Assembly (NCBI RefSeq): GCF_963506605.1
Contig: NC_083291.1
Coordinates: 38,254,001-38,318,000 of the forward strand
Length of the DNA: 64,000 nucleotides
Direction of reading: 5' to 3'
Origin: Zootoca vivipara
Lineage: Eukaryota
Shown here: positions 551 to 53,093 of the stretch, piece after piece
How the letters are laid out: each line of letters opens with the position of its first letter
Position numbering within the stretch: the stretch's first letter is position 1
Made by a program: the position numbers and the translations under genes
The notes under the pieces: generated by a model
Databases searched by the model: none
The model's input: only the letters and a program-made list of their open reading frames with translations
What the model was told of the DNA's origin: nothing

Positions 551-14166
<13,616 letters not shown>

Positions 14167-28778: not shown

Positions 28779-30446
28779 TGTAGGGGTATTTAAAACATCC
28801 TCTTTTTTGCTCTTTGAAATATGGCAAACCTAACTCCCCCCCTTTAAAATTAATCCTGGCTACACCCATAGCAGGCGGTCGTAGTGACACTGCCAGTTTG
28901 TTGATATAATCAATGAACAATTACCATGTATTCAGAAATTTATCCTTCTTACCCTGCCCATTTATCATCACGCTGCTGTGTTGATTCAACTCCCAGATTG
29001 TGCCATTTCCCATACCTGGGTAAAACAAAGATCGTAAAATGAGAGCCTCCCTCCATTTCCCACATGACAGCTATTTCCATTCTGGCAGTGGCTGTTAGAA
29101 AAGAGACCATGGTCAAAGATGGAATATTGTGGTTGTGATCTCCCCCACCCCCCACCCCGGATCCCTGTTTAGTTTATAACCCATTATGATTATTTCAGTA
29201 ATTATTTATTTACCCAAAATGGTACACAAGAGTTTTTGCACCATTTGCTCCCTACCGGGATGGGGCTTTCCAAACCACTGGAACAATGGAGAGACAAGTA
29301 ACCAGTCATTTTTCTTTCCTCTTCTTGGCAGGCCTATTCACCCAACATGTGCATGGTTGGTCCTTAATGCAGGAGCCGGGAAGCTGTGACCACCAGGCGT
29401 TGGAAGCCAACTCCCATCATCAGCCCCAGGCAGCAAGGATGAGGGAAGCTGTACGCCAACAACAAGAACAATTCACATCTCAGAATACTGTGGTCTTGTT
29501 CCCACAATGTTTGTTGCTAGACACTGGAACATTAGAGGATGAATTGCTTGTGTGAATCAGCTGTCATGGGTTTAAGTTCACATGCATTTGATGCGTGGCA
29601 AAAGTCCAGTCTGTGGTGTCCATTCACAGGTGAAACTTATTGCTGGGCGTTGCAGTGATCGGGTGATGAGTATTTGTGTGTGTACAGTCCTTAAAGCAAA
29701 CTACAAAACAAAATACTTGTGTCTGCACTAGTAATTTCTGAAACGGTCTTCAAGGATCGCTCCACTAACAGTGCATGGCAGTAATCCCACTCTGGAGTTA
29801 CCAGAGCATGGATAACTGGGGCAAGACTATCCTGGTTCAGAAACAGCAATGGCTGGTGAGAAGCGCTCTTGGGTCTTTTTACACAAGCACAAAGCCTTCA
29901 AGAGGGAGCTGCAAGCAGCTTGATGATTAGTGTACCTTATGACAAATGACAAACAGAAATTCAACAGGTGAAGCTTTCACCAGAATGCAAAGGTGGCGAC
30001 AGAGGTGGGGAAGTTTCGCTTGCTGTTTAAAAGTAGGAGCCCTGCCAGAAAGAAAGAAAAAAGGCAAATCTTGCTATATAAATAGGACTTCAAGGCCAAG
30101 GCCAGGCCATCCGTTTTGGCTCCCCTGTCACTCCCCCCCCTTCCTCTTCCTCACTGCCAGCTATTAGCTGCTTTCCCCGTTGGCAAGAGAGACAGAGAGA
30201 GACGCAGCAATGGGGTGGGGAATCTGTGTCTCTGCAGATGCTGCAAGGACTACAACTCCCATTATCCCTGACCCTCGGCCATGCTGGATGGGGCTGAAGG
30301 GAACTGGAGTCCAGCAACACCTGGAGAAACACTATGATTAAGATTTTGCTTGTGTTTGTGTAACTGATTAATCAATATGGTGAGCTGGCTCAAATATATT
30401 TAATCAGTTAACACATGCAGACTAGAAAGTAAAGTACACTGGATAA

Positions 30447-30452
30447 TTTATT
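30447..30452 (-). terminator. Candidate polyadenylation signal of LAGE3
   Basis: First minus-strand AATAAA I can find downstream of the LAGE3 stop. It lies beyond the hAT insertion at 30526-31672. Confidence 0.5.
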
Positions 30453-30525
30453 AGAGCACCAGATTCTATGTACTTTGTCTTCCATCAAGGCAGTCCCAGG
30501 CTTGCCTGCTTCTCAGCACCCAAAA

Positions 30526-31672
30526 CAGGGGCGTACCCAGGATCAAAATTAGGGGTGGGCAAGGGGCGGGGGCAAGGGGTGGGAGGGGAGGGGCCACAGT
30601 GGGAATGTGGGCGGGGCTACATGGCCTGCGTCCTCCCAGCTCTTCTGAGGAGGCAGCCCCAGGCTCTTGTTCCCGGCGCGAAGCTCCAGAGGCGCGGGGG
30701 GAACGCAAGCCTGGGGCTGCCTCTTCCGCGCCTCCCAGGTCTTCCGAGGAGGCGGCCCCAAGCTCCCATTCCCGGCGCGAAGCTCCAGAGGTGCGCGGGG
30801 AACGCAAGCCTGTGGCTGCCTCCTCCACTTACAATCCCCGCTCCTGCTTAGCGCTCCTCCGCTTACGCTCCCCTCGCGCCTCTGGAGCTTTGCGCTGGGA
30901 GCCGGAGCCTGGGGCTGCCATGCTGCGCCCCTTAGCCTTTTGCTTCTAGGGGGGGCAATTGCCCCCTCCTGCCCCCCTGCCCACGGCACTGGTCGCCCCT
31001 CTGGGCAGCTCGCCCCATCCCCCGGGTGCACTGTTTCTGCCCCGAGCGCAGACGGCTCAGCCTCCTCCTCCTCTGATTCCCACCCGGCTCCCCACTGTGC
31101 CTCCTGGGCTGGCTCCGCAGCCACTGTCCCTGGCTGAGCTGCCCCTGCAGCTGCTCTGCATAGACATCAATGCACCCAGCCAGAAAAGTGAGTGTGAGTG
31201 CCTCGATCCGGGGAGAAAGTGGGGGGAGGGAGGATCTTGGAAGGGTTGAAGGAGCCTGCAGTGTGTGTGTGTGCGCGCGCGCGTGTGTGCGTTTGCTGCT
31301 GCTGACTGACTGTATTTTGAATTGGGGGAGTGTCTGTTTCTCCTGCTGCAGGGGAGAAAACTACAAAGAAGTGACTTCTTGGTGGGGGTGGTCGGGGTGG
31401 GGTGGGGAGAACAAGCGAGGATCCCTCCGTCTCTTACGTTTACACCCCACCGCTTTTGCAGCTCGATAGTGGGAGGGGGAGAGGAGAAAGTGCGATGGGT
31501 TCTGGAAAGGGGAAAGGGGAAAGGGGGGAGGGCTGGTCTGTTTCTTTCTGGCTGGGGCCACGCGCCCCGCTTTTTGCATTGAGATTTCTTCTTTCTTTTT
31601 AGCTTGGGGGGGGCAGCTGGCTTCTAGAGTAGGGCAGCTGCCCTAACGTGCCCCATGGCGGGTACGCCCTTG
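30526..31672. mobile_element. Non-autonomous hAT element with internal GC-rich tandem repeats
   Basis: TIRs CAGGGGCGTACCC / GGGTACGCCCTTG and a perfect 8-bp TSD ACCCAAAA (30518-30525 and 31673-31680). Confidence 0.88.
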
Positions 31673-31855
31673 ACCCAAAATCTATCAATGTCCAAGAGTA
31701 TCCGAGAGGAAAGAGTTCCCTGCTGGCTCCTGAACACAAAGCAACATCTTGGCTCTAAGGATGGCATGTTCAGTGCCTCCTCTGACATCAGTAGCCCATG
31801 GGCAAGTCCAGAGTCCAGCCAAGACTATGGGGAAGCTTCCTGTTGCAACCAGCTA

Positions 31856-34800
31856 TCAAGCCACAGGAGGCCCAAACAGGTCCATAGTTTCCACCACCAA
31901 GGAGAGATGCTCCAGGAAGGAGCTGATGGACACACGCAGAATCCGGGCTTCATCTGCTCTCCATCGACTGCAAAAAAATAAAATAAATATATTTTGTGTA
32001 GAGTGAAACATAAAACGTCAACACTTGCACTACACTTAACACAATGAACATGCCACTCCTTCTGCCAATATCCTCTTTCTATTCCAGTCCTTGAGCTTCT
32101 CTTTTACTCTTGGCAGACACTGGGCCCCTGGTCCAATACATATTGATGCCAGAAAATATACTGTTTCACTTAATTCATTTATTCTTATCATAGCACCACC
32201 TGAACACAAAGGACTCAACAGAGAGGATGGGAGGAATGATTCTTATTCTCCTCCTCCTCTATATAGTATCATCAGCTTGTATAGCACTTTACAGAAAATA
32301 CAAGGGGATAGATCTCTGCCCTGAGAGGCTTACAGTTTAAAATTTGGCACAACAGAGGAAGGAAAGGGATGTGGGTGCAGGCGAAGGACGCGATGATTTG
32401 ACTGACAAGTGCTCAGGTTTAGTTAGAGGCCTGGGTGCTGCAGTGACAAGGGCATCCCACCAACCTTCATTCACTAGCAGTGGGCACAACACCCCACTTG
32501 GGGAAGGGCCCCAGCTTAGTGGGAGAGCAGCCATGCAGATGATCAATCCCTGGTAGGTCTGGGAGCTATGCCTGTCTGTCCCCCTTAAAAACTGCAGGTG
32601 GGCCTGTGCTAAATGGATGGGTGATAGGCAGATTCCTACGTCCCCAGGAAGTTGTCCTGTGTGCAGAAGCACATTGATCCAAATGCAGGTCTTGCTCAGC
32701 ACACCACTTTATTTTACTTGCACCCCACTCTTCCTCCACGTTATGCTCAAAACAACCCTGCAGGGTAGGTCAGGCCAAGAAACAGACTCATTCAAAAGGG
32801 TTCAGCTCCAAGGGCCTTCTGGCAGTTCCCTCATGTGAGAAATGAGGTTACAGAGAACCAGGCGGAGGGCCTCCTTGGTGGTGGCACCCGCCCTGTGGAA
32901 CGTCCTCCCGTCAGATGTCAAGGAGATAAATAACTATCCAACTTTTAGAAGACATCTAAAAGCAGCCCTATATAGGGAAGTTTTAAATGTTTTATGTTTT
33001 TATATCTATTGGAAGCTGCCCAGTGGCGGGATACAAATAATAATGTTGTTGTTGTTGTTTAAACCCTGGGTCAAGTCCAAGAAGCCATCCATTACAGCGC
33101 CACCTTGTCTCTCATCCTCCTGCAGCTTGTGCAGGAGACCTTCCAGCAGGCTGCACCCAGGACTCAGAGCCCACCATCTGCCCCGACTGGCACCACCCCT
33201 TGCCTCTTGTAGAAGGGGGCGCCTGGCCAATACTCACACATGCAAGATGTCGTCCGTCACGTCCAGTTCCTTGCTGATCCCTTCTTTGCGGGGCTCAGGG
33301 TCAGGGGCCAGGGAGCCCAGCGCAATCTGAGCCAATGATGATGATGGGAAAGGGATCCTCAGCTCACTGATGTTGGGGGGGGGTAGCGTTAAGGAGCATA
33401 AAATGTACAAGAAAATCCCCCCACACTCACACACAGGCGCACACTGCCTACCTTTCCAACAAGAGACACGTTCTCTATTCAAGGTCACCTTTGTATTCCA
33501 TGTTTAATATTCCTGGGAGAGCTTCATCTAGTCCCTGGTTTTCAGCTGAGGTGCTCTGACACGGATTAGAATCCCTGCTTATCCATGACTGTGGATGGGA
33601 GAAAACTCAAGACCAATGTTCAAATTGCAGGGTGGAGGGCAGAGGGGGCCACTTTTGTTCCGATCTCTTTCGCCTACTATTTTTAGAGGGGGAGGGGGAG
33701 TTGCATCAGGGAAGCAGGGGAAGATGTGCTGTACCTAAAACAGGAGAGGGCCCAGGAAATGTGGATTTCATTAAATGCCTTCCTAGGGGCCCCTAGGAAC
33801 CAGGGGCCCCTTTACCTTTAGGGACCCAGGTGGCGCTGTGGGTTAAACCACAGAGTCTAGGGCTTGCTGATCAGAAGGTCGGCGGTTCGAATCCCTGCAA
33901 TGGGGTGAGCTCCTGTTGCTCGGTCCCAGCTCCTGCCCAACTAGCAGTTTGAAAGCACATCAAAGTGCAAGTAGATAAATAGGGACCGCTACAGCGGGAA
34001 AGTAAACGGCGTTTCCGTGCGCTGCTCTGGTTCGCCAGAAGCAGCTTTGTCATGCTGGCCACATGACCCGGAAGCTGTCTGTGGAAAAACGCCGGCTCCC
34101 TCGGCCTATAGAGCGAGATGAGCGCCGCAACCCCAGAGTCGGACACACACGACTGGACCTGATGGTCAGGGGCCAATTACCTTTACCTCTTTCCCTTCAC
34201 CCACGCAATCACCATTCTGTCGTATTTGCAGTTAGTGGTCAAAAAGCATTAAAGGGCAACTTATCCCCATTTCTCTCCTCACAAAGAATCCTGCGCACTG
34301 TAGCTTACCCCTCACAAAGTGCCCATAATACTTTGCGAGTGAAACCCTAGCAACCCATCACCTTGAATTCCCAGCAGATCTAGAAATGCAACTTAGCACA
34401 CATGCATTTTATGCAAATGCATGTCGTGGGTCTGCGCTTAGAGTCCCTTCAGCAACACCCTTGCAAGTGACCACGGACTCCGGCCCCCTTCCCACCCTCC
34501 CAGCAACAGTGTCCGGATCCAAATCGCACTTCTACTCTGAACATACAGCACAGGACGCGTTCCTATTTTATTTTTACGGTTTCAGTTGCAGGACTGGGCA
34601 AGGCTTTTGCACTTCTGGCACGTCAAAGGCGCGGGTATTTTAGCAGGAGCTGAAATCCCGTTTCGATCTGCAACCGGTGAAACCCATTTCAACCGCCTTT
34701 GCGCCTCCTGCCTATTTCCTGAAAGGCGGTTGCCAGAGGCTGTCGGGGCCAGAGGCGCCTTTACGCAGAAGCAAGTCCCGCAGCCGGGGACCTGATCCCC

Positions 34801-35106
34801 CCACTCCCCTCGCTCTTGCCCCGCGATCCCGGCGTTGTTCCCTCCCCCCCCCACCTACGGTAGTTCCTCCCTCCCACCCAGGAAAGGAGGACCCCAGCAG
34901 GAATTCCCGCCCCCCTTGAAAACAGATAAGGTGGTGGGGGTGGGGAACCGCGATACCTCCCTCCAAAGGACCCAGGCGTCCGACAGCCCACCCGCCCCCT
35001 CCGCGGGCGCATTGCTGCCTCGTCCCGCCTGCTTCTTTCCCGCCGGATACAACGCGAGGCCTGGCCGGGACACAGCGCTCCCTCCGGCCGCCGCCGCTCC
35101 TTCCAT
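31856..35106 (-). CDS. LAGE3: EKC/KEOPS complex subunit LAGE3 (Pcc1 family), 3 exons, 98 aa
   Basis: Exons 35051-35106, 33238-33366 and 31856-31967 (297 nt). Spliced protein: MEGAAAAGGSAVSRPGLAFELRIPFPSSSLAQIALGSLAPDPEPRKEGISKELDVTDDILHVRWRADEARILRVSISSFLEHLSLVVETMDLFGPPVA. This matches the human LAGE3 core as I recall it (FTLSVPFP...IAHGSLAPDAEP...VRWKAEDCRLLRISVINFLDQLSLVVRTMQRFGPPV). The exon 1 donor is inferred from phase and motif. Confidence 0.92.
32826..33048 (+). mobile_element. L2-like LINE 3' fragment in LAGE3 intron 2
   Basis: Translates to RRASLVVAPALWNVLPSDVKEINNYPTFRRHLKA, typical of an L2/CR1-group ORF2 C-terminus. Confidence 0.65.
33821..34188 (+). mobile_element. Sauria SINE, full length, in LAGE3 intron 1
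   Basis: A-box TGGCGCTGTGG, B-box GGTTCGAATCC and a TTTACCT tail. Confidence 0.9.
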
Positions 35107-35250
35107 CGCCGCCGCCGCCTCCCCCTCGCTCTTCCCCACGTGGGCGCCGAGGGGTGGATCCCAAGGAGCTGCCAGCCCACGTGGGTGGATCCTTCCGAAT
35201 CCACCAGCATTAGCTGTAGAGTCTGAGACGAGGTGGCGGCGAGCAATATG
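34520..35250 (-). promoter_or_regulatory. CpG island / promoter of LAGE3
   Basis: CpG-rich region with a strong Kozak (gcggcgATGG) and two CCCACGTGGG E-boxes (cores at 35137-35142 and 35178-35183). Confidence 0.7.
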
Positions 35251-36812: not shown

Positions 36813-39800
36813 TTAGAGAACAAACTGAAAATTGACAACTGTCTTCTGTAAAATAGGACACCTGAGCATCTTATATTTGCTCTTCATCTGTTAATGAGTG
36901 AATGCCTTTTCCACATTCTGCATAATCTAAATAGGATCTGTTTGAAAATTTAGGTTACTTCCTAAACAACAATGCAAAATTAAGAGACAGTCTTTTGAGC
37001 ACCTTGCTTCATTTAGCTCTTAAGGGAGAGATAGAGAGAAAGAGAAAGAGAGAGGAGGGAGAGGGAGAGGGAGGGAGGTTGCATTGGAAGTAAGCAGGGA
37101 CACCGCAGGGGCTTGAACCCCGTCCTGGAAACCAGGAGCGCCAACCACCAGCGTCTTTTGCTTTTTTTTGGCCAATGCAACAAGGTGAAAAGCAAAACCT
37201 GAGAGAACACTCTGAATACAGAATGTTCTCTCAGGAAAAAAGAAAACCCTTAAGAGTTATGAAGTTGCAGACAAAACACAATCGAGGTTTTATCCCTTGC
37301 CAAGCAAGGGATATTCACCTACCGTAGATGTGTTTAAGTCACAGAGTGCCATGTTGACTGCCATTAATTTGCAGAGACTGGTTCCAGTCGTTAAACTCTG
37401 CCTTTATGCTCACCTTTTTGTTTGTCCCTCTGAAGTGTGAATTCATGGGCCTGGAAGTTCCTTCTGCTGGTCTGTGAAAAGCAATCTGGACTCATTAGTT
37501 TGTCCCCGGCCCTTTCCCACCAATTCCAGAGAAATGTTTTTTAAACACAGCTGTTCTTACTGACCTGACTTCTGCAGGAAGAGCTGGCTTCACCTGAGTG
37601 TGGTGGGCTCTTGGACAGAACTGTGAAGAGATCAAGCGGGGGAAATGGAGAAGCCAGCACAAAAGGATTGTACTGAAAAAGATCACTGAATTGTGAGGTG
37701 TGAAGTTCACTTGCCGTTAAGTTTCCTGAAGGCTTGCAAAATTCTATTTCTTGTGTCGCTGAGATGCACCTGGAAGAGACTAGGGTCTTCAGCAGCCCTC
37801 CCCTCCAGACACAGGAGCAAAAACAGCCGGTTACCTAAAGCAGCGCAGTCAAGACGCAGGTGCCTCTCAGTCCTACACTGAAGATGTTCACTTGATGCAT
37901 CAAGAGCTCTGACACTGCCTCTTGTCAATGGAGCAGATTTGCCTCCGGCACAGGTGAGGTCTGTAAAAAAAAGAGCTGGAACAAAACAAGGATGGCTGTC
38001 CCACCAAAAGATGTACCTTATTGTGTGGTGATGGCACAGGAAGGGGCCTCCCCTGCAGTGGTGTCCCGACAAGAGACGTCCCTCTAGGTAGAAGCACGGA
38101 GAACGACTGCATTAGGCTTTTGAGTTCGCAGCTCTTCTGAAAAAGTGATTGAATAACCAACATTGCTCAATACAAGCTCTTTGGAATATTTAGTTTGCAT
38201 ATTTGATGTATGATTCCATTTAGAGCCTACCTTTTCTCCAACAGGCTCAGGGTGCTTGAATGGTCCCCCTCACGGCAACCTGAAAGAATCTTTGTACAAA
38301 GAGTTGCAGGCAGAACACAACAGAAGTTTTCTCCTCAGTCAAGCACAAGATACTCACCTAGTTCACCTTCAGCCAGAAGACACACAACTGTATTCCTGCT
38401 ATAATTATTACGATAGAGCATTTAGAGATTACTTGTTAGTTATTAGTGCCTATCACCACCTCTGATAATTCAAAAGGTTTTTTAATAGAAGCTACGATTG
38501 CAGTTGAAGGTAACCAAGTGAGAGGTTACAGGCAAAGGAAGAAGTTTGCTACACCAGGTTTTTAAATATATTACCTTAGGAACAGAAGTACTGGCAAGGA
38601 TCCAAATTTTAGTATTTGTTGGAAACCCAGCAACTATCAATCCTATCATGCAAGTTTTCACCAAAAAGCCAGTAATACAATTTGGGTCAAATTCAATTTC
38701 TAATAAAGTCTCAGCATTTATGGATCATGTTCCCTGCAGTAAATAGTCATACCTGTACCTCAGGCAAAGAAAATTGGGAGCTACATGCCTCCTTTATCTA
38801 CAGGATTTAAGGGTACAGACCTCTATTCCAAAACGTTTCACAATTGTGGGTTATTATTATTTTGTGTGGCCCCGCTCTGGTCATTAGTGGAACAATCCGC
38901 CACCCCCTTATGTATGAGTAAAAATGGCCAGAGTCGGGATTCATAAGATTTCAAATATTTTCTCAGTCAGTTCAGCCTTACCATTAACAGACAAAATATT
39001 CTGCCCTTTATGTACAGGAAAAAATGGTTAAGGCTCATCCTTCCTAATTCTGAATATGTTTGTGCTTAAACGTTTACTGGACTTTTTTTGCTGAAAAATG
39101 GCTGGCAAAATGGTGAAAACCTCTACTCACTCTAATGCCTCTACCAGGCCGCCTCTACCATTGCCATCAGTAGATTGACCCTCAAAATGCTTTATTGGCT
39201 TTTTAACACTGAAATCAGCGACAGACAAAGGAAGCCGTTTTGATGCATCAGCTTTTAAAATGGGTATTCTAAATGGGTATTCTACCTTAGGAACAGAATT
39301 ACTGGCGATGATCCAAAATGCTGGCATGTTTGGAACCTTCTGGATTTATACACATCTGAAGGAACAAAAACTCAACAATATTTTGGTGACCCTCTTCTGC
39401 AGTTGCCCAGTAACTACAATTAGGTATAATACTCTCACCCTTGGTTGGTTGCTTTTTGCTGCTGCTCCTTGTGGCATTCTCAGTTATTTCCCCCTTTTTT
39501 GCTCCCCCCACAACCAATTCTTGATCCTAGTGGCTTCCAAACCTTTTATCACATACCCTTCTCACTTCTAAGTCTTACCTGTGTTAAAATCTTACCAATC
39601 TTGGTTTGTCCAACTTCTAGAGCGAGGTTCTGGAGCAGGTGGTCGCAGACCAGATCCAGGTGCGCTTGGAAGAAGCTGATTTTCTGGATCCATTTCAATC
39701 AGGGTTTAGGCCTGTTTTGGCACAAAAACTGCCTTGGTCGCCCTGTACGATGACCTCTGTCGAGAGACAAGGCGCTCAGTGACCCGGAGTGCCTTCCATC

Positions 39801-40792
39801 ACCTTCAGCTGGTGGCCCAGCTACGCCCCTCTCTGGACAGGGATAGCCTGACTCCTGTTGTCTATGCTCTGGTAACCTGTTATTGGGTTGTTATTTTTGT
39901 TGATTTTGTGTATTTGATGTTTTATGTGAACCGCATTTAGACCTTCAGGTATAGGGTGGTATAGAAAACAAACAAACAAACAAACAAACTTCGGCAACAG
40001 AAACAGGCTTCTTTTATGAAATGGCTTCTCCAGTTGTGTTATGTATTGGTTTAATTTGTGTACATGAGTTTCTCTGCTAGTCCTGTAACTACCTTTCCCG
40101 CTCCTGGGCGATTCAAATGGGTGCGGTGACAGTTGCTATTGGTTAACTTGTTAGCACAATTTGGATCCTCACTCTGATAGGTTCCAGCCAAAATCTAAAT
40201 GTATCCTTTCTCCAACCCCTGCTCCTGAGAGTATCAAAGGAGCTCACCCTTTCCCTCCAGTTCAGTCAAGATTCCTACTGCAATAAAGAAGACTGTTCCT
40301 GTTATACTTGACTCCTAGCAGTTCCTTGCTAGTATGCTGAATCACTATTCTGAGCTGACTTCACGAAGAGCTGAAATCACGCTCACGACTTAACAAGTTG
40401 CCTTTTAAAAGAAAGGCCTTCTATTTTCTGCAATGATTCTTCACTCTGCTTGAAGCAGACTTCATATCCACTTACCCTTTCCTCTGCTCCTTTGTACATC
40501 CAAAGACTTGTTGGTTGAAAGGTATATCAACTTGATTTTGCCCCTCATGTTCTTTCATTTTGTCTTAGTTTTCCCTTGGCGTATCTGCTTTTCTTGATTC
40601 TCTTTAAAATCTTCATCTTAGTATTTTTATGAGTTTTCAGTTTAAATATTGCCTGGCTAAGCTTTCTTTTGGGGGCTTTCTCAAAGTCCATCATCTGTCC
40701 ACAATTTATTCTCCCTGTTTTATTATGATTAATTTTTTGTTGGTCTTCTATTTTCTTTCAATTTCCTTTTAATTTAAAATGCATTGCCTCTC
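36813..40792 (-). pseudogene. Unidentified multi-exon locus (orphan gene, decayed gene or spliced lncRNA)
   Basis: About 15 short segments bounded by YAG acceptors and GT donors, all on the minus strand, many separated by 75-120 nt introns. Several consecutive exons are phase-compatible, but stops and frame breaks occur. No homologue recognised. Confidence 0.5.
39622..39990 (+). mobile_element. Internally deleted L2-like LINE fragment
   Basis: RT-like remnant (DPFQSGFRP...TALVALYDDL across frames) ending in an (AAAC)n tail. Confidence 0.6.
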
Positions 40793-41627
40793 CTAACACA
40801 TTTTAGGGAGTTACTGAATTAAAATATCTATCTATTTATCTTCTATCTATCTATCTATCTCTATCTATCTATCTCTCTACAAGCAACATTTAAACTTGCC
40901 AATTAGGGAGATCAGAAGTGAACGTTTGTTGTATCTGTTTTTAAAGTTGTAAATAACAACTTCAGCTCTGACCAGTGAGAGGGCTAAAACCAGTATTGTA
41001 GCCAGGGACAGTCTCACTCACTAGACTCTGGCTCGCTCCTTCCACCACCTGTTGGTCATAATGACAAATAAAAAAAGTCCCTTGGCGCATTAATACAGTG
41101 GATACAAATGTGTTTGCTTTCAACATAGGATCATTGTGCATGGGTGAGAAATTAGTACCGGCCCCACTCCCTAATAACAGGGTTCCTGGGGTGCCAACTT
41201 GAATAAAATTGGGGGGGGGCGGTAAGCCCTGCCCTACATAGTCACATGACACGGCACACACAATTAAATGGCAATGCCCATCAACTTTGGGGGGCGGGTT
41301 TCCCGGTCCCCTCAAATATTTTTTTTGTGGGGGGGCTTAAGAGGAGTTAGCTCCTAAGCTGGGGTATGTGTCATTCCTGGATCAATGTCTTTGTTTGCTT
41401 GGCTATGTGTAGCACCTGCTGTGCCTTTTAATGACATTTTGCCCATGTATCGCACTGATCTGAGCATTAAAGATTTTGGTAGACACTGCAGTGTGAGTTT
41501 GAATTATTCTTTGAGTGGGAGCCAGGAAACTCTCATTCACAGAGTGTTTTTTGGAGGTTCTCCTTGTTGGAGGGCCCCCAAAATGGATAACCTATCGCTT
41601 TAAGAAAATGATTTAAGAAACTGTTAA

Positions 41628-41669: not shown

Positions 41670-41677
41670 TCTATCTA
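41629..41677. repeat. (TCTA)n microsatellite; related tracts at about 40826-40875 and 42137-42182
   Basis: Direct reading of the sequence. Confidence 0.9.
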
Positions 41678-42169
41678 CAAGCAACATTTAAAATTGTCTA
41701 CTATGGAGATCATAAGTGAAAATTAGTTGTATCTCTTTTTAAAGTTGTAAATAACAACTTCAGCTCTGACCAGTGAGAGGGCTAAGACCAGTTTTATACC
41801 AGGGACAGTCAGCGGTGGAGGAAGCCGCTCGGGCTCTTGGGGCACGAGCTGCCCATAGGGGCAGGGTGAGGGCGGGGTGAGCCATCCATAGGGGCAGGGT
41901 GCATTGTGGGGCCTCCAGAGTCTGCCTGCCTCCTCCCACTCAGTCCCCTACATCTGGGGGGGGGAGGCACCAGGCAGACCGTTTGGACAGATTGGAGCCT
42001 GCACACTCCCAAGCCACTGCGTCCTGGCATTTTGTCACCCCTCTCAGAGGTGACACCTTGGGGCGGCTCTGCACTTACCACACACCCCTTCCTCCGCCAC
42101 TGGTGGCCGGTGGTGTGGGGGAGTATTGCCCCCCCTTATCTATCTATCTATCAATCAATCTTCTATCTA

Positions 42170-52098: not shown

Positions 52099-53093
52099 TC
52101 CTATATAATAATGTCCATGTTGTCCCTGCGTCCAGATGTCCCGTGTGTCCCTGGGGTACTGCGCATGTACCCCAGAGACACAGGGATTGGACGGAGGGAC
52201 AACGGCCAACCGCCGCTCCGCCAACCGCCGCTCCGAAGCCCAGTCTCATGCTGGAGGTGCACGGCGAGGCGGCGGGGGAAAGAAGCGCTCCCCCCGGCAG
52301 CCTTGCCGCGCACCTCCGGCATGGGACGGCGCTTCCTCGGCCGAAGCGGCAGCGGGCGCCGAGGGAAGCCGGCTTTGGCTTGGTGGCGGCGGGAAGAAGA
52401 GGAGGAATTCCTCCTCTTTTTCCCGCCGCCGCCAAGCCAGTCCCCAAGCCAAAGTGCGGCGCGGCGGGGGCTTTTCGCCGTTTGCCTTCCCGGAGCGAAG
52501 GGGGAGGCAAACGGCGAAAAGCACCCGCCGCGCCGCACTTCGGCTCGGGGACTGGCTTGGCGTGCGCGGCGAGGCGGTGGGGGGGGGGGAGAAGCGCTCC
52601 TCCCCCCCGCCGCCTCGGCACGCAGCGCCGGCATGGGACGGAGTTTCGGAGAAGGTCTCCGAAGCCCCGTCTCATGCGGGAGGTGCGCGGTGAGGCGGCG
52701 GGGGGGGAGAAGCGCTCCCCCCCCCCTGCGCCTCACCACGCAGCGCCGACATGGGACGGGGCTTCGGAGACCTTCTCCGAAGCCCCGTCTCATGCGGGAG
52801 GTGCGCGGCGAGGCGGCGGGGGGAGAGAAGCGCTCCTCCCCCCCCCCGCCGCCTCACCACGCAGTGCCGGCATGGGACGGAGTTTTGGAGAAGGTCTCCG
52901 AAGCCCCGTCTCATGCGGGAGGTGCGCAGCGGGGGGGGCAGGAGAAGTGCTTCTCTCTCCCCCCCCCCGCCGCCTCGCCACGCACCTCCCGCATGAGACG
53001 GGGCTTCGGAGACCTCCGAAGCTCCGTCCCATGCTGGCGCTGCAGGACAGCAGCGTTCTAGCGCCCGTTTTTAAACGGGCTGAATTCCACTAG
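52099..53093 (+). mobile_element. GC-rich non-autonomous Helitron, family B, with internal repeats of about 120 bp
   Basis: A|TC start, 3' hairpin GCCCGTTT-tt-AAACGGGC, CTAG|T end. Inserted in a (TAA)n tract with no TSD. Confidence 0.8.

Follow-up and report, generated by a model that had tools for sequence, protein, structure and literature searches.

We report that the tract at positions 36813–41048 of a 64,000-nucleotide (nt) stretch of the Zootoca vivipara genome (the window hereafter; contig NC_083291.1, positions 38,254,001 to 38,318,000) is very probably a duplicate of the entire MALAT1 gene, reshuffled and shortened by internal deletion, that has kept the promoter region and an intact triple-helix/mascRNA module and likely specifies a noncoding RNA of ~3.8 kb from the minus strand. 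The tract lies between genes for a TAFAZZIN-type acyltransferase and for Pcc1/LAGE3. An original prediction, made from the letters alone, had seen there about 15 AG/GT-bounded micro-exons, and had offered an orphan protein gene, a unitary pseudogene, a long noncoding RNA (lncRNA) or a TAFAZZIN read-through. The lncRNA option was right, although as a MALAT1 duplicate rather than an anonymous transcript, while a unitary pseudogene is excluded by a multi-copy locus whose parent is itself noncoding.

Homology to MALAT1

The evidence begins at the 3′ end. An Rfam scan of the window returned a sole match, mascRNA-menRNA (RF01684), on the minus strand, covering the whole model at 73.2 bits (cut-off 42.5, E 1.8e-13), and directly upstream lie the parts of a MALAT1-type triple helix; both fall within the originally predicted interval (at 37099–37246) but had been overlooked there:

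37099–37155, minus strand: mascRNA/menRNA tRNA-like element (Rfam RF01684), predicted substrate of RNase P and RNase Z
37156–37246, minus strand: MALAT1-type triple helix, from sequence and fold, 85% identical to the MALAT1 module; predicted mature 3′ end at 37156
37236–37246, minus strand: U-rich motif 1 of the triple helix
37198–37235, minus strand: 17-bp hairpin of the triple helix
37188–37197, minus strand: U-rich motif 2 of the triple helix
37156–37169, minus strand: A-rich tract of the triple helix, directly before the tRNA-like element
36813–36925, minus strand: stretch past the predicted cleavage point that the mature triple-helix RNA would not include, found only in the closest copies

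MALAT1-type triple helices have a canonical motif order, which is followed here, and the pairing of U-rich motif 2 with the A tract is complete (10/10). The order also agrees with the MALAT1 module for triple-helix formation and RNase P/RNase Z processing that the accessible portion of PMC7344863 describes.

The homology extends well beyond this module. The parent is a 7-kb gene on contig C17, MALAT1 itself, which aligns with the tract from promoter to 3′ end, in pieces, at 69–88% identity. It is flanked on one side by FERM-domain exons (PF00373, E 4e-10, from translated exons), which we take to be FRMD8, and on the other by SCYL1 (95% to the Podarcis lilfordi N-terminal kinase-like protein); when the FRMD8 C-lobe was sought by a family search, no match came up, and the synteny was read instead from the translated exons. 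FRMD8-MALAT1-SCYL1 is the published gene order, according to the accessible part of PMC10869381. With the C17 copy adjoining FRMD8 as the reference, the following blocks were aligned:

40960–41123, minus strand: homologue of the MALAT1 promoter and start, 73.7% over 167 nt, E 5e-18, common to most family members
40397–40796, minus strand: counterpart of MALAT1's 5′ purine-rich region, with 68.6% identity across 417 nt (E 1e-31), containing the predicted segment 40476–40792
39253–39617, minus strand: pieces of MALAT1 origin, in which donors 39439 and 39286 and acceptor 39355 are inherited
38267–38615, minus strand: counterpart of the 3′ portion of the MALAT1 body, with inherited donor 38575 and acceptor 38279
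37410–37984, minus strand: counterpart of the MALAT1 core, with 70.9% identity across 498 nt (E 3e-59), inherited acceptors 37960 and 37471 and inherited donors 37835 and 37414

The core alignment spans 37410–37877 (70.9%) and the module is 85.2% identical to that of MALAT1; shorter aligned pieces lie at 39554–39617, 39350–39397, 39253–39316, 38517–38615, 38267–38308, 38116–38142 and 37954–37984, and donor 39286 is a duplicate of donor 38575. The 5′ limit of the original prediction (41048) falls inside the promoter homologue. Because the copy includes sequence upstream of the TATA box, we infer duplication at the DNA level rather than retroposition. Thus, the tract shares with MALAT1 the promoter region, several body blocks and the 3′ module, yet differs in its length (~3.8 kb against ~7 kb), its chromosome, its partly spliced family and its architecture, in which most of the middle is gone (approximately positions 1150–5300 of the 7.5-kb stretch) and the remaining blocks are reordered, duplicated and interrupted by retroelements.

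The locus is therefore a lacertid MALAT1-like lncRNA of an already described class (tancRNA): it has a mascRNA element, an ordered triple helix before it and a position away from FRMD8-SCYL1, as an extra copy. It is not the MALAT1 orthologue proper, given that the FRMD8-SCYL1 position is taken by the C17 copies and that the tract, at ~3.8 kb with the middle lost and with spliced joints in its family, departs from the single continuous ~7-kb isoform of MALAT1. Of the C17 copies there are two, each starting at a TATA box and ending in a mascRNA match; they are full-length, inverted (27.349–27.356 Mb, plus strand, and 27.373–27.380 Mb, minus strand; L089, L091, L092) and 97.7–98.7% identical over 6.7 kb, differ in their promoter sequences, and have between them a DUF84 exon that is presumably PRRC1-like. 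Squamates are reported to have a single MALAT1 here, and the pair may stem from a recent duplication accompanied by conversion, or else be a feature of the assembly.

Contrary to the description of the tract as mostly repeat-poor, three repeat insertions were found in it:

40037–40396: solo long terminal repeat (LTR) with TG...CA ends and a 5-bp target duplication, with many genomic copies at 96–99%
38652–39121: dispersed-repeat fragment resembling an LTR element, 73–82% identical to loci on nine other contigs
39615–39772: high-copy interspersed repeat fragment (2229 candidates, of which 40 were scored, 84–92%)

The solo LTR is private to this copy, being absent from all paralogues, and contains the predicted segments 40248–40277 and 40093–40135. 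The relatives of 38652–39121 include the interior of a 7.7-kb element whose 1.1-kb terminal repeats are 98.9% alike, and this fragment holds segments 38982–39049 (or 38982–39000) and 38753–38797, so that 4 of the listed AG/GT segments fall in retroelement-derived DNA. A transposon or Helitron as the whole unit was also considered and dropped, as Rfam and the MALAT1 alignment account for both conserved ends.

A dispersed family of MALAT1-derived copies

The claim that the tract has no recognisable homologue is overturned not only by its parent but also by a family. A DNA search of the genome found five close paralogues with 89–97% identity:

Copy A: paralogue at 39.35 Mb on the same contig
Copy B: paralogue at 36.64 Mb on the same contig
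Copy C: paralogue at 38.13 Mb on the same contig
Copy D: paralogue at 19.98 Mb on the same contig
Copy E: paralogue on contig C19, without the 3′ module

A wider family, at ~70% identity, has a 5′ block and a 3′ block in common with the tract. Matches to mascRNA number 24 in the genome, 23 of them over the cut-off (17 on the tract's contig, two on C17, two on C15 and three in tandem on C10), a count that is a lower bound with 68 candidates scored; accordingly, at least 20 MALAT1-like loci are present in this genome, 17 of them on the tract's chromosome. The loci have more than a 3′ module in common: body sequence is shared between the tract and 19/19 of the other mascRNA loci outside C17, and all 21 of the family sequences tested match the MALAT1 body, the majority of them matching the promoter too. 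The middle of MALAT1 is gone from the family except for short pieces, and the retained blocks are often tandemly repeated. The family thereby offers ~20 natural deletion variants that retain the same ~1.4 kb of MALAT1, which makes these blocks worth testing, with the proviso that shared descent may explain their retention. The module is better kept among copies than the body, with 1, 1, 1 and 3 changes per 177 nt against body divergences of 2.2, 3.6, 2.6 and 6.6% (Fisher p 0.10, 0.013, 0.057 and 0.003; below 0.05 in two of the four tests).

Several members of the family are unusual in structure. One copy on C19 (L013, 2.30 Mb) has neither promoter nor 3′ module and carries a tandemly repeated piece of retroelement origin. 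On C10 (17.280–17.281 Mb; L066, L086, L087), three mascRNA units stand in tandem ~420 bp apart, the two upstream ones with shortened hairpins. Four MALAT1-like copies (L045, L049, L050, L052, L053; C16 20.5–21.6 Mb) hold near-full-length inserts derived from 7SK, scoring up to 183 bits; these are antisense to the lncRNA, and weaker opposite-strand matches adjoin them. Finally, damaged triple helices, with U-rich motif 1 lost or the A tract altered, accompany good mascRNA elements at C16 19.85, 21.52, 21.62, 22.74 and 28.12 Mb and at C15 42.32 and 42.77 Mb, and these members serve as natural variants with respect to the module's two parts.

Splicing and latent splice motifs

All of the AG/GT-bounded minus-strand segments are present where the original prediction had placed them, and its short gaps of 83, 77, 78, 94 and 93 nt are correct. 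Scored against shuffled sequence and the opposite strand, the splice sites gave a divided result: donor-like motifs (GT with at least 7/9 matches to a consensus) were enriched on the minus strand only, with 19 against 8.6 ± 2.7 expected from 300 dinucleotide shuffles (p=0.003), compared with 7 against 6.5 on the plus strand and chance levels in four intergenic strand controls, whereas acceptors were raised only weakly (8 against 4.4 in shuffles, p=0.08). Donor enrichment recurred at p<=0.02 in 4/6 other family bodies, where tandem repeats inflate the counts.

RNA was compared through four runs placed on 37330–39640, among them X20, which consists of raw reads, and X1 and X5, which are presumed RNA contigs. 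Since the X1 and X5 contigs may hold DNA, their unspliced pieces carry no weight. Approximately 6% of two raw runs was read; the tissue is unrecorded, and their RNA was taken from a different individual or a closely related species. Twelve of the predicted segments lie in this interval, giving 11 neighbouring junctions, 3 of which were spliced with GT-AG ends (38136/38231, 37620/37835 and 37471/37565), in reads that stem from a sister copy or other species. The best covered is this intron:

38137–38230, minus strand: intron of 94 nt, GT-AG, with 9 raw reads (8 starts) from the sister copy in X20 and 3 contigs in X1

The joint 37471/37565 (intron 37472–37564) was seen in X1 and X5 contigs and the joint 37620/37835 (intron 37621–37834) in an X1 contig, both from other species. 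Further GT-AG joints were 38133/38231 in X5 and 38289/39579, using donor 39579, in one X1 contig; seven additional joints had no GT-AG ends. Because first mates map to the plus strand, just as in MALAT1 reads, the RNA derives from the minus strand; it carries copy B alleles, and none is assignable to this copy. One X1 contig, from another species, joins donor 37414 to an acceptor at ~36925, with a loose end at 37422, a joint that in this copy would skip the entire 3′ module; the exon end of this contig resembles the module-less copy E.

That the reads observed come from a copy 1.6 Mb away also bears on whether the segments belong, as exons, to a read-through or 3′ extension of TAFAZZIN. They do lie on the same strand, ~4–5 kb downstream of the TAFAZZIN stop, but the tract has its own MALAT1-type promoter and its paralogues stand elsewhere without TAFAZZIN sequence, so that a read-through is unneeded and, in our judgment, with RNA compared over 37330–39640, hardly credible.

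Where, then, did the motifs of the MALAT1 duplicate originate? For twelve of the predicted sites the alignment to MALAT1 exceeds a shuffled control, and the same AG/GT is found there in 9/12, an agreement that leans upward given that each alignment was centred on the splice site. Raw reads matching the tract only at 37820–37852 agree in their flanks fully or almost fully with the C17 gene, and they continue across the counterpart of donor 37835 without being spliced. Together, the inherited AG/GT and the unspliced reads indicate that these motifs predate the duplicate and were latent in MALAT1. Selection on the sites among recent copies was not apparent (8 AG/GT losses against ~9 expected from background divergence, by hand estimate), and for a concentration of donors in the MALAT1 parts retained by the family (4/13 donors in 1356/6750 nt) the numbers are too small to tell.

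We propose the following route for the tract and its sisters. RNA polymerase II would start on the minus strand 25–35 nt downstream of a TATA box, a spacing inferred from the accessible part of PMC10869381, and RNase P would cut at 37156; the A tract would fold back into a triple helix that protects the 3′ end, and RNase Z would free the mascRNA. The predicted outcome is one stable RNA that is probably retained in the nucleus, plus a small tRNA-like RNA. The "micro-exons" would be latent MALAT1 splice motifs plus chance motifs in retroelement DNA, assembled by deletion and tandem duplication and partly used, and unused donor motifs may bind the U1 small nuclear ribonucleoprotein and add to nuclear retention. 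In a human-cell reporter, a 5′ splice site combined with the MALAT1 3′ end yielded a stable, nucleus-retained RNA, according to the accessible text of bioRxiv 2024.07.23.604837. A bolder version, which we consider rather unlikely, is that lacertids turned unspliced MALAT1 into ~20 spliceable genes by dropping the middle and tandemly amplifying blocks with latent splice sites, with a choice of fate between RNase P cleavage and splicing from donor 37414 over the module. If true, the family would provide a natural series in which introns are acquired by a nuclear RNA that had none, together with a switch acting on non-poly(A) 3′-end formation.

Observations against a noncoding duplicate and the coding alternative

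Several results pull against the reading of the tract as a MALAT1 duplicate that yields a noncoding RNA. None of the raw reads on 37330–39640 was at least 99% alike to this copy (0/23 and 0/51), and the X20 letters at 38103, 38043, 38364, 38085 and 38077 fit copy B alone. MALAT1 itself has no donor excess (13 against 18.4, a crude count), so the enrichment arose in the duplicates. The longest open path through the listed segments reaches 236–270 amino acids (aa), with P ~0.001 against within-segment shuffles, an excess that vanishes only once the freedom of site choice is modelled. Synonymous changes on the originally predicted frame number 29 against 22.5 ± 3.9 (p=0.066). Finally, cleavage, the 3′ end, the start site, the tissue and the nuclear location are all predictions.

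The open path is also the first point in favor of a young protein-coding gene, built from MALAT1-derived RNA through micro-exon splicing. An open path of ~200 aa, as originally described, does exist, but is uninformative: with splice sites allowed to be as weak as the weakest used there, 200 aa was also reached by 40/40 shuffles, by the opposite strand and by an intergenic control. Several acceptors on the path are weak (4–6 pyrimidines in 13), and with stricter donors the tract's paths remained longer than those of controls, in step with the higher donor count. A second favorable point came from a protein search with a 40-aa segment, which found, as one predicted protein among 5 candidates, a 130-aa prediction in Podarcis lilfordi that joins homologues of donor 39579 and three segments and whose 78-aa frame is open in 4/6 copies. 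On that frame, though, 9 synonymous changes stand against 11.2 expected (p=0.85) with a pN/pS ratio of 1.02, and the prediction forms a one-member cluster with no Pfam match. Between copies, 11 length changes are frameshifting against 3 that keep the frame; the originally predicted frame is intact in only 1/5 paralogues (copy A); and copy B, the expressed type, has stops on both candidate paths. Of the 8 junctions of the originally predicted path that lie in the RNA interval, 1 was spliced.

Conservation is likewise not centred on the segments. Substitution rates in segments and gaps were 0.023/0.020, 0.035/0.036, 0.039/0.018, 0.083/0.058 and 0.078/0.071 for copies A–E (copy C without two segments, copy E aligned over the last 1.6 kb only), the segment rate being equal to or above the gap rate in 4/5 copies and within 0.001 of it in the fifth. 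A profile search with six segment translations gave no Pfam match. Having neither a codon-level signal nor a frame that survives between copies, an orphan protein gene appears very improbable, and the MALAT1 duplicate removes what would have been a false one. Such duplicates can mislead human readers and gene predictors alike, as the Podarcis lilfordi prediction, which stems from this family, illustrates.

State of this copy

The read evidence relates more closely to a different alternative, namely that the origin from MALAT1 is as described, yet this copy is a dead segmental duplicate and only sisters such as B work. We regard this as possible, if somewhat short of an even chance. At the TATA position (40994–41000), the tract reads TACAAT where copies A, B and C read TATAAT, and this private change, together with the solo LTR and a 440-bp deletion, suggests that the copy may be weakened or silent. 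The copy was duplicated recently along with LAGE3, and the absence of any 99% alike raw read from the two runs, whose alleles match B, points the same way; those runs, on the other hand, were read only to ~6%, with the tissue and source noted above. Against a dead copy stands its module, which is intact with one private change and an Rfam score equal to that of copies A–D, as well as a second promoter core, whose intact TATAAAA sits 798 bp upstream of the mutated near TATA:

41670–41808, minus strand: upstream promoter-core duplicate, a 129-nt direct repeat of 40872–41000 at 89%, with intact TATAAAA at 41792–41798

Two further observations concern this neighborhood. Just upstream of the TATA position, 41042–41055 of the window holds a motif that resembles the CTCF consensus and that most family members and one C17 copy retain. 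In the co-duplicated LAGE3 region (window 30044–35221 against C16 39.35, 36.64 and 38.13 Mb), all three exon regions are present in copy A, and the first exon is absent in B and C.

Relation to known MALAT1-like loci

MALAT1-like loci, or tancRNAs, of Anolis carolinensis were reportedly described by Zhang et al. in 2017 (Cell Rep 19:1723). The name tancRNA for the anole loci occurs in the accessible part of PMC6952434, and the portions of PMC12941219 and PMC7344863 available, both citing Zhang et al., describe these loci as abundant in testis, located in the nuclei of spermatocytes and linked to piRNA (PIWI-interacting RNA) biogenesis. By analogy, the lacertid family would probably be active in testis, where it may be a source of piRNAs. 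Both sets comprise many non-syntenic lizard loci, each anole locus ending in a triple helix and mascRNA, as far as the accessible parts of PMC10869381, PMC12941219, PMC7344863 and PMC6888369 describe them. The differences are that the present loci belong to another lizard family, that promoter and body are also MALAT1-derived and that some junctions are spliced, whereas the anole loci are interpreted, in the accessible part of PMC10869381, as other transcripts that received a copy of the triple helix. The literature searched, whose coverage mostly excludes subscription journals, yielded no publication on MALAT1-like loci of lacertids. Hence, with our results the MALAT1-like family, reported from anoles, also includes lacertids, and its whole-gene, promoter-bearing, rearranged and partly spliced build may be new, a distinction from the anole loci that relies on the descriptions in citing papers.

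A further point of reference is NEAT1/MEN-beta, the MALAT1 paralogue that likewise has a triple helix and tRNA-like element and two possible 3′ fates. Unlike the short and dispersed loci of the present family, NEAT1 exceeds 20 kb and lies beside MALAT1, and it is reported as lost in squamates in the accessible part of PMC10869381. Elsewhere in the window, GC-rich tandem units of 118–121 nt (52562–53034) and 99 nt (30632–30826) are probably repeat-derived.

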